Shown one piece after another: positions 53,501 to 56,602 of a DNA stretch of 64,000 nt. The notes beneath the pieces were generated by a model. The model did no database searches. It was not told the DNA's origin and saw only the letters and a list, made by a program, of their open reading frames with translations. Position 1 is the first letter of the stretch; every line of letters begins with the position of its first letter. The translations under genes and the position numbers were made by a program. The stretch lies in the NCBI RefSeq assembly GCF_003018235.1, contig NZ_CP027437.1; one strand, 5' to 3'. This DNA is from Escherichia coli (lineage in GTDB: Bacteria; Pseudomonadota; Gammaproteobacteria; Enterobacterales; Enterobacteriaceae).

Positions 53501-54610
<1,110 letters not shown>

Positions 54611-54671
54611 TGGGCGGTATTCTGAAACGGCGATTGTCGTGAGAACAGAATGGTTGCACCAGAATACAGAT

Positions 54672-54762
54672 ATAAAAAAACCGACATGACAGTCGGTTTT
54701 TTTATTTTTTCCGCCCAAGACTTGGTGGTTCCGGGCAGAAATGAAACAGTCCTCATCTAGCA
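54672..54762 (-). ncRNA. Candidate ~90-nt antisense (antitoxin) sRNA of a type I toxin-antitoxin pair
   Basis: A near-consensus promoter lies just upstream and the terminator at 54674-54710 downstream. Its 5' end (TGCTAGATGAGGACTG) is complementary to 54933-54948 in the toxin 5' UTR. Confidence 0.45.
54674..54710. terminator. Bidirectional rho-independent terminator (selU on plus; candidate sRNA on minus)
   Basis: AAAAAAACCGAC-atgaca-GTCGGTTTTTTTATTTTTT, with A-tract and T-tract flanks. Confidence 0.75.
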
Positions 54763-54767
54763 AGTGA

Positions 54768-54796
54768 ATTATAAGTCAGGATGCCTACATATTCAA
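54768..54796 (-). promoter_or_regulatory. Near-consensus sigma70 promoter for the candidate sRNA
   Basis: Minus strand: TTGAAT (54796-91), 17 nt, TATAAT (54773-68). Confidence 0.55.
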
Positions 54797-55021
54797 ACAG
54801 CTATGTTGGCGATACAATCCCGACGCTAGTAGTGATACTGCCTCAAGGGATTACCGCAGTGCGGAAAAGTACTTTTAAGTCCTGGTCAGGATACAGGTGG
54901 TGCTGATTCTGGTGCTCTAATTTGGAGAGAGGCAGTCCTCATCTAGCACATGAAGAAAATCATAGTTACAGGCAACGTAAGGGTAAGCTGTGATTGTCTT
55001 TCTCCCTTAAGGGAGCAACGG

Positions 55022-55105
55022 ATGAAAACTTTTCTCGATAAAGTTCTCATCGTTCTTAAGGCGCTAATCGCGCTGCTGGAACTGATTCGTCAGTTTATTG
55101 AATAA
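55022..55105 (+). CDS. DinQ-like 27-aa hydrophobic type I toxin candidate
   Basis: MKTFLDKVLIVLKALIALLELIRQFIE. The core DKVLIVLKALIALLELIR compares with recalled DinQ DKAIIVLGALIALLELIR. The SD GGGAG is buried in the palindrome CTCCCTTAAGGGAG (55002-15). Confidence 0.6.
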   Translation: MKTFLDKVLIVLKALIALLELIRQFIE

Positions 55106-55121
55106 CTGAGGAAACGTAGCT

Positions 55122-55152
55122 AAGGCCGAAGGTTTACCACCTTCGGCCTTTA
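55122..55152 (+). terminator. Terminator of the toxin transcript
   Basis: AAGGCCGAAGG-tttacca-CCTTCGGCCTT, an 11-bp stem with a short T-tract. Confidence 0.55.
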
Positions 55153-55208
55153 AAAAAACCGACATGACAGTTGGTTTCATATTTATTGCCAAAATGCATA
55201 CTGTTCAT

Positions 55209-55241
55209 GCCAGATGCGGCGTAAACGCCTTATCCGGCCTA
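55209..55241. repeat. REP element (partner of the REP split off by IS621)
   Basis: GCCAGATGCGGCGTAAACGCCTTATCCGGCCTAC. Confidence 0.7.
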
Positions 55242-55277
55242 CACAATCTTGCAAAATCAATATATTGCACGCTCTTC

Positions 55278-56586
<1,309 letters not shown>

Positions 56587-56602
56587 AATCTAACACCTGT
56601 CA

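Follow-up and report, generated by a model that had tools for sequence, protein, structure and literature searches.

The 64,000-nucleotide stretch of Escherichia coli DNA analyzed here (NCBI RefSeq assembly GCF_003018235.1, contig NZ_CP027437.1; hereafter, the window) carries, between selU and ybbP, a segment that is very probably a chromosomal type I toxin-antitoxin module of the DinQ/AgrB (dinQ-like, dql) family and an accessory paralogue of dinQ-agrAB. On sequence criteria, the assignment to the family rests on three independent model-based tests, namely a match to the Rfam AgrB model, a match to the NCBIfam DinQ model, and the alignment to E. coli K-12. An original prediction, drawn up from the nucleotide sequence alone, had read the locus as encoding a type I toxin resembling DinQ and, divergent from it, an antisense small RNA (sRNA) that pairs in trans, and our data support this interpretation. 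Homology, family-model matches, complementarity and covariation, predicted alternative folds, the lack of a LexA box and the population distribution were established by sequence comparison and computation; from these we infer transcription starts, processing, toxicity, repression and independence from SOS.

54627-55193, no strand assigned: whole module, ~567 bp, defined by its presence here and its absence from "empty" selU-ybbP intergenic regions.

The bounds of the insert, approximately 54627 to 55193, were set by alignment to E. coli HB42 and DA61218, in which the spacer between selU (mnmH) and ybbP is only 140 bp long; no clear target-site duplication was seen at the module edges relative to these two empty sites. 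K-12 was considered as an empty-site reference and rejected; its sequence diverges directly past the selU stop codon, and its ybbP-selU interval is occupied by rhsD-ybbC-ylbH-ybbD, as the original prediction had stated, and additionally by ylbI-ylbG. Alignment of 54627-55193 with the agrA-dinQ region of K-12 revealed a full-length, diverged paralogue. The two sequences align from end to end with ~68% identity, from the terminator and stem-loop of the sRNA through the divergent promoter region, leader, Shine-Dalgarno (SD) hairpin, and open reading frame (ORF) to the terminator of the toxin gene, and the stems are kept by compensatory changes. The K-12 numbering that we derived matches the published element positions exactly (PMC5066626), which indicates that the homology-based mapping is reliable.

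55022-55105, plus strand: toxin ORF of 27 amino acids, MKTFLDKVLIVLKALIALLELIRQFIE followed by a stop codon, with GGGAG 6 nt before the ATG.

The coordinates proposed for the 27-codon, DinQ-like ORF were right. Its peptide is matched by the NCBIfam model NF041472 (toxin_DinQ) with 40.9 bits (cut-off, 30), contains the invariant core K..L.AL.ALLELIR, and shares 65% identity with K-12 DinQ; 18 of its 27 residues are hydrophobic by manual count, in line with the small, hydrophobic, single-helix peptide that is the DinQ signature. The DqlB model NF041473 scored 24.5 bits, below its cut-off of 35, and the Pfam profiles gave no match to the peptide, with PF28061 being listed by the database for homologues. 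The homologue search used the 51-amino-acid in-frame form of the ORF as the query. In E. ruysiae, the peptide is 100% identical despite three nucleotide changes in the ORF, so that all three are synonymous. Peptides of the type …LKAL[IV]ALLELIRQFI[DE] are common to Salmonella, Serratia, Enterobacter, Klebsiella aerogenes, and Photorhabdus. As a separate observation, the peptides P0026 and P0019 join the N-terminal part of the paralogue (MKTFLDKVLIVLKALIALLELIR) to a DinQ-type C terminus (FLLQLLN or QLLNN); these apparent chimeras suggest that the two loci have recombined with each other or with copies on plasmids.

The gene is not new to the databases. In more than 1300 genomes, PGAP annotates the 27-amino-acid ORF as a coding sequence for "damage-inducible type I toxin DinQ", and the exact 27- and 51-amino-acid proteins are public on at least 1000 contigs. 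Both the dql family and the RefSeq "DinQ" annotation of this gene are thus already known, and the novelty of the finding is accordingly low. These entries raise the question of which product is real, since in many of them the ORF is annotated as the longer in-frame form of 51 amino acids (54950-55105), which has an open frame with an ATG start and was deposited under the name DinQ on at least 1000 contigs. We regard the longer product as extremely unlikely. The upstream ATG (54950) has no SD sequence and lies within the structured leader, directly 3' of the sRNA target, whereas GGGAG stands 6 nt ahead of the ATG at 55022; conservation across genera is seen for the core of 27 to 31 amino acids and not for the N-terminal extension; the 27-amino-acid form is the reported translated product in K-12 (PMC3567139, PMC5066626); and it is also the form that PGAP selects in complete genomes.

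The antitoxin side of the module comprises the following features.

54672-54761, minus strand: AgrB-family antisense sRNA (predicted antitoxin), ~90 nt, with a 5' antisense segment, an internal stem-loop and a Rho-independent terminator.
54768-54796, minus strand: near-consensus sigma-70 promoter of the sRNA, TTGAAT, 17 nt, TATAAT, with 10 of 12 consensus matches.
54672-54705, no strand assigned: bidirectional terminator hairpin with a 14-bp stem, forming the 3' part of the AgrB match.
54743-54762, minus strand: 5' antisense segment of the sRNA, holding the first copy of a direct repeat (54747-54762).
54929-54948, plus strand: sRNA target in the toxin leader, ~75-90 nt before the start codon, holding the second copy of the repeat (54933-54948).

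The promoter, the ~90-nt antisense RNA and the bidirectional selU terminator had all been proposed, and each found a counterpart in our analysis. The Rfam model RF02891 (AgrB) matches 54672-54760 on the minus strand over model positions 1 to 84 with 53.6 bits (gathering score, 40; E = 9.8e-8), and the alignment shows that the predicted sRNA is homologous to agrA and agrB of K-12. A consensus scan of 54550-55300 returned the sRNA promoter as the only promoter-like site, and the terminator scan detected the hairpin on both strands, where it would serve selU as well as the sRNA. The locus therefore has the arrangement typical of the AgrB family, a non-overlapping upstream sRNA gene with its own promoter and terminator. 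Hits to the Rfam model OrzO-P stayed far below threshold (24.1 and 19.5 bits, with a gathering score of 60) and were confined to the terminator hairpin; IstR and OhsC had no Rfam match at the module.

The link between the sRNA and the toxin mRNA is the 16-nt direct repeat CAGTCCTCATCTAGCA, which is present at 54747-54762 and 54933-54948, exact as had been noted, and occurs nowhere else on either strand of the window. By our own arithmetic (~1.8e5 position pairs/4^16), an exact 16-nt repeat within ~600 bp is expected by chance ~4e-5 times. The claim that the first ~16 nt of the sRNA are complementary to 54933-54948 held for the repeat and required correction for the transcript: the likely sRNA start is G54761, or C54760 according to the Rfam alignment, so that 14 or 15 of the 16 repeat bases are predicted to be transcribed. 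The duplex extends instead in the other direction, with 20 contiguous pairs, including two G-U pairs, between 54743-54762 (minus strand) and 54929-54948, and continues beyond one mismatch. The position of this target is equivalent to that of the agrB target (G88-A119) of K-12 dinQ.

Loss of the complementarity in homologous loci, which would have spoken against the proposed pairing, was not seen. In 75 homologous loci from other species, a direct repeat of 13-25 nt connects the leader at approximately -90 with a site ~275-307 nt upstream, as against only 7-10 nt in the control comparisons, and this repeat keeps its position and differs in sequence among Escherichia, Serratia, Citrobacter, Pantoea, Kosakonia, and Leminorella. 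The Rfam AgrB model scored above its gathering score at the expected place in 13 of 20 sampled loci, giving 15 matches, as two canonical loci contain two copies. A different arrangement was noted in Photorhabdus and Xenorhabdus (L027, L028, L030, L031, L033, L037-L039, L043, L050, and L052), in which the AgrB-like sRNA gene upstream lies on the same strand as the toxin. These flipped genes have their own promoter and terminator and keep 19-24 nt of complementarity as an inverted repeat; L027, the sole locus of this type tested individually, gave no Rfam AgrB detection. Since the complementarity persists even when the sRNA gene is flipped, it is the pairing that is conserved and not the DNA repeat as such. 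The sequence comparison thus shows the complementarity between sRNA and leader maintained in relatives within the DinQ/AgrB family, and the pairing appears to be under selection.

The sRNA gene arose long ago as a copy of part of the leader, so that over the whole length everything pairs and the duplex energies are uninformative; the calculation was therefore limited to the 5'-terminal 30-36 nt of the sRNA. Among 29 distinct sRNAs (first 30 nt), the cognate leader was the best partner for 72%, and in the remaining cases it was mostly beaten by orthologous or closely related loci; cognate energies ranged from -37 to -58 kcal/mol, compared with non-cognate medians of -22 to -46 kcal/mol. The sRNA of the window pairs with its own leader at -47.7 kcal/mol, whereas the cross pairs are weaker, with -34.6 kcal/mol for AgrB and the window leader and -38.3 kcal/mol for the window sRNA and the dinQ leader. 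Both values also fall short of that of AgrA-dinQ (-44.4 kcal/mol), and AgrA was reported to give no protection against DinQ (PMC3567139); the window system and dinQ/AgrB are therefore probably insulated from each other in one cell. The recognition sequence of the window sRNA differs from that of AgrB, and the sRNA is probably orthogonal to it.

The toxin mRNA and its leader contain the features listed below.

54826-55152, plus strand: predicted toxin mRNA, ~327 nt, aligned to K-12 dinQ +1 to +331, with both ends inferred.
54813-54818, plus strand: candidate toxin -10 hexamer TACAAT, with a weak -35 and an inferred start near 54825-54826.
54837-54844, plus strand: leader element 1, ACTGCCTC, which pairs with 54929-54936 in the minimum-free-energy fold of 54826-55152.
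54924-54937, plus strand: leader element 2, which overlaps the sRNA target; its partner is element 1 or, after 5' truncation, element 3 (54992-55005).
54992-55015, plus strand: leader elements 3 and 4, which fold into a hairpin kept across loci with compensatory changes.
55002-55015, plus strand: perfect SD palindrome CTCCCTTAAGGGAG, containing the CTCCC/GGGAG hairpin with the SD sequence.
55122-55152, plus strand: toxin terminator hairpin with an 11-bp stem, AAGGCCGAAGG-TTTACCA-CCTTCGGCCTT, and a short U tail.

As proposed earlier, the SD sequence GGGAG lies within a perfect palindrome, TACAAT is found at 54813-54818, with ~330 nt expected to the terminator (~327 nt from a start near 54826), and the 11-bp-stem terminator is in place. 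The latter has a tail of only three U residues and fails the T-run rule of the scan, though it corresponds by homology to the terminator mapped for K-12 dinQ and shows compensatory changes in the stem. TACAAT is the best -10 candidate, and a start near 54826 puts leader element 1 at +12 to +19, as compared with +16 to +28 in K-12. The fold predicted for the full-length RNA (54826-55152) has elements 1 and 2 paired and the SD hairpin closed, with a mean SD unpaired probability of 0.01. In RNAs that are 5'-truncated to 54850-54880, elements 2 and 3 pair (predicted duplex energy, -24.9 kcal/mol), the hairpin is lost, and the SD unpaired probability rises to 0.16-0.18; when the sRNA target is blocked in the truncated RNA, the hairpin returns and the value falls back to 0.01. 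Both the SD hairpin and the 2:3 duplex recur throughout the family with compensatory changes. The predicted folds reproduce the published dinQ leader switch (PMC5066626) with its three states, namely 1:2 plus 3:4, 2:3, and sRNA-blocked, although the 2:3 state frees the SD sequence only in part.

Apart from these elements, a leader hairpin C(A/G)G-GUGGUG-C(U/C)G (window 54895-54902) with a covarying stem is near-universal in the 73 loci compared. A kissing contact between an sRNA loop CCACCAA (54726-54732) and the leader loop GGUGGUG was considered as a family feature and rejected, as both motifs were present in only 21 of the 73 loci; the CCACCAA loop of the sRNA is found in the window module and in K-12.

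The lack of a LexA operator distinguishes this module from dinQ proper, in which such an operator overlaps the promoter. No CTG-N10-CAG sequence was found in 54600-55200. The operator of K-12, CTGTATGATTATCCAG, overlaps both the -10 and the +1 of dinQ; the stretch of the module aligned with it is disrupted, and a 7-nt gap near 54840 stands in place of the LexA box and the -10. Among the 73 loci, a LexA box at that position was confined to the gor-arsR dinQ loci (Escherichia and Shigella) and Citrobacter. These three lines of evidence bear out the earlier statement that the toxin gene lacks a LexA box, and, as there is no LexA operator, the module is probably not SOS-induced. The name "damage-inducible" given by RefSeq is, on this sequence evidence, unsupported for the selU-ybbP paralogue and likely an over-annotation. 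The opposite view, that the module is still SOS-regulated like dinQ, either through a non-canonical LexA site or indirectly, could draw on a one-mismatch CTA-N10-CAG site, CTACATATTCAAACAG at 54785-54800, which overlaps the -35 regions of both promoters, and on the label of the NCBIfam DinQ model as an equivalog of damage-inducible DinQ. Considering the gap in the operator counterpart, the lack of CTG-N10-CAG in the module, and the restriction of the box to the gor-arsR dinQ clade and Citrobacter, we rate SOS regulation as very unlikely.

From K-12 dinQ, pOXA-48 dqlB, and our computations on the window module, the following mechanism can be proposed for this probably SOS-independent module. 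A weak promoter, probably with the -10 TACAAT at 54813, would produce an mRNA of ~330 nt that is translationally inert at full length, with element 1 paired to element 2 and the SD sequence sequestered by the CTCCC/GGGAG hairpin. Once the 5' end is removed, element 2 would be free to pair with element 3, opening the hairpin and permitting translation of the 27-amino-acid hydrophobic inner-membrane peptide, which would be toxic on accumulation. The strong, near-consensus divergent promoter would in turn supply the AgrB-like sRNA of ~90 nt, whose 5' end would pair with element 2 and its flank over the 20 contiguous pairs and cause the SD hairpin to re-close; the resulting duplex would probably be a substrate of RNase III. 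Each of these steps has an experimental precedent in dinQ (PMC3567139, PMC5066626), and the precedents for toxicity, inner-membrane location, sRNA rescue, and RNase III cleavage come only from dinQ (PMC3567139, PMC5066626) and pOXA-48 dqlB (PMC12365149).

The module was detected in 1332 of 5426 complete E. coli genomes (~25%), representing an insertion/deletion polymorphism, and was chromosomal in all 1338 places in which it was found; E. coli HS and ATCC 8739 are among the carriers. The canonical dinQ locus is present in 5422 of the 5426 genomes, and both loci co-occur in single genomes (L007 with L066 and L006 with L061). We tentatively propose, with slightly less than even confidence, that the selU-ybbP module is a functionally independent, SOS-blind sister of dinQ with an AgrB-orthogonal sRNA, and that roughly one E. 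coli strain in four possesses two DinQ-type toxins that are insulated from each other and respond to different triggers.

Several observations weigh against the explanation favored here. The toxin promoter and start are uncertain, as the mapped K-12 +1 aligns near 54840, at the gap, and the candidate -35 is poor; 5' truncation exposes the SD sequence only in part (0.16-0.18), since the predicted structure engages four of its bases in other pairs; the duplex is among the weakest of the family, with 16 perfect bases compared with 21-25 elsewhere and 30/31 for AgrB; and the LexA-like site described above overlaps the promoter region. Moreover, ~195 of 1325 carriers (~15%) lack a full-length core, which implies that the toxin is dispensable and sometimes lost. 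In E. coli EF5-18-41 (L081), 108 bp equivalent to 54934-55041 of the window are deleted between two imperfect repeats, AGTCCTCATC and AGTTCTCATC. This allele has lost the start codon and first codons of the toxin along with the SD hairpin and the sRNA target, and its sRNA gene is intact; PGAP still names the remaining 25-amino-acid remnant dinQ. Four more sampled carriers share the match pattern of this allele (74% covered, 263-bp span) and probably have the same deletion. The allele of Shigella flexneri SFBU1023 (L015) is diverged, with the leader target CAGTCGCATCTAGCA, a longest exact match to the sRNA of 9 nt, and a peptide that ends frameshifted (…RKFVIE); judged by its sequence, the module of this strain looks as if it is decaying.

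It may thus be asked whether the module is everywhere in E. coli a decaying relic, with a non-functional toxin, sRNA or both, that persists by drift only. The short complementarity, the carriers without a full core, among them the 108-bp deletion allele, the broken duplex and frameshifted C terminus of the Shigella flexneri allele, and the weak -35 of the toxin promoter are all compatible with such a scenario. We nevertheless consider it unlikely, given that ~1100-1260 genomes retain the ORF, the SD hairpin, the sRNA promoter, and the 16-nt pair intact and with at least 99% identity, that the three ORF nucleotide changes in E. ruysiae are all synonymous, leaving the peptide identical, and that every stem is maintained by compensatory changes relative to K-12.

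The assignment as an intact DinQ/AgrB-type module, if extended to the SOS-blind sister proposed above, would make the RefSeq term "damage-inducible" a systematic mis-annotation for this paralogue. It is also conceivable, as a speculation, that the module has a role particular to certain strains, such as one in persistence or phage tolerance, and that its presence or absence and its toxin-dead alleles are a reflection of this role. Together with dinQ/AgrB, the selU-ybbP module offers a natural pair of related systems in one cell for tests of sRNA specificity, and natural toxin-dead alleles are available for work on type I toxins. The case further illustrates that a type I toxin-antitoxin module can be recognized from raw sequence by a careful reader; our knowledge of how such systems work is unchanged by the findings on this module.

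The surroundings of the module yielded further observations. The selU-ybbP interval (window 54611-56602 compared with L003, L004, and L005) exists in at least three states in E. coli, namely an empty 140-bp spacer with repetitive extragenic palindromic (REP) sequence, the 567-bp toxin module with or without the bridge-RNA recombinase element IS621, and the K-12 rhsD island of ~7 kb. In the window, an IS621-like copy lies between the toxin module and ybbP, adjoining REP sequences, and is absent at this site in CFSAN061763; it encodes at 55387-56367 (minus strand) an IS110-family transposase of 326 amino acids that matches the IS621 transposase (PDB 8WT6) over its full length with 726 bits. A partial match to naRNA4, a REP-derived RNA, at 55203-55239 (36.6 bits; gathering score, 59.5) corresponds to an ordinary REP element just to the right of the insert, which is also present in empty-site strains. 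At the right edge of the insert, we noted one more feature.

55152-55178, no strand assigned: partial second copy of an agr-type terminator, AAAAAAACCGACATGACAGTTGGTTT, which repeats 54674-54700 and is terminator-like on the plus strand in the scan.

The two copies have in common AAAAAAACCGACATGACAGT, followed by C or T and then GGTTT, and the right-edge copy is perhaps a remnant of an adjacent module or of a tandem array. A 30-nt match between the leader and the downstream region in the Serratia locus L075 suggests tandem modules. In the plasmid collection, no true plasmid carrying the window module was found, as the three high-identity records (one of 1.2 Mb) are probably chromosomal. A total of 1773 plasmids, which are mostly conjugative and stem from Escherichia, Klebsiella, and Salmonella, carry modules of the dinQ/dqlB type that are 66-77% identical to parts of the module.

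The original prediction had compared the design of the locus with those of dinQ/agrB, tisB/istR-1, and zorO/orzO. The first comparison stands; the other two are analogies only, with OrzO-P reaching 24 bits of the required 60. Like the window module, tisB/istR-1, zorO/orzO, and shoB/ohsC combine a small membrane toxin and a long, structured 5' untranslated region (UTR) that needs processing with an sRNA that is divergently encoded, acts in trans, and targets a site upstream of the ribosome binding site, but they have no sequence or model match to the window module and are not members of the same family.

Among the closest known systems is dinQ-agrAB of E. coli K-12, located in the gor-arsR intergenic region and described by Weel-Sneve in 2013 (PMC3567139) and Kristiansen in 2016 (PMC5066626). 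Homology between the two loci spans their whole length (~68% identity). Each encodes a hydrophobic peptide of 27 amino acids and an AgrB-type sRNA that is divergent from the toxin gene, does not overlap it, and pairs through its 5' end with the leader ~80-100 nt ahead of the start codon. The SD hairpin, the leader elements 1 to 4 (predicted for the window module), a homologous terminator, and an mRNA length of ~330 nt (predicted here; 331 nt for K-12 dinQ) are also common to both. In contrast to K-12 dinQ, the window module has no LexA operator, a single sRNA gene instead of the tandem agrA and agrB, and a different and shorter recognition sequence (16 perfect or 20 contiguous pairs compared with 30/31). 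Its ATG is three codons further upstream, and its C terminus is three residues shorter, with QFIE in place of FLLQLLN. The window module is located at selU-ybbP in ~25% of E. coli, whereas dinQ is found in 5422 of 5426 genomes; it therefore lacks the gor-arsR site with tandem agrA and agrB that marks dinQ proper, and the genomes that carry it have the canonical locus at its own site.

The dql gene family, which was defined in 2016 by the group that had described dinQ, comprises genes on chromosomes and plasmids of Enterobacteriaceae that occur alongside dinQ and for which an extended N terminus is often annotated (PMC5066626); antisense RNAs for dql genes were predicted in T1TAdb (PMC8594479). 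The window gene fits the published description of the dql genes (dqlA/dqlB), with a similar 5' UTR, the signature peptide, a sigma-70 promoter, a terminator, and an SD sequence, and it likewise coexists with dinQ in the same strain and often appears in databases with a longer N terminus. The peptide string was not found in the searchable literature, and the presence of this locus among the 14 published dql sequences was not confirmed.

A further member of the family is dqlB-agrB of pOXA-48 and other conjugative plasmids, for which toxicity, repression by base pairing of agrB, verified with compensatory mutations, and a function as an addiction module were reported in 2025 (PMC12365149). The window peptide falls below the cut-off of the DqlB model, and the window module is chromosomal and similar to the plasmid homologues over parts of its length only; the complementarity amounts to 35 nt in pOXA-48 and to 16-20 nt in the window. 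The experiments on pOXA-48 dqlB-agrB lend support to the mechanism inferred for the window module.

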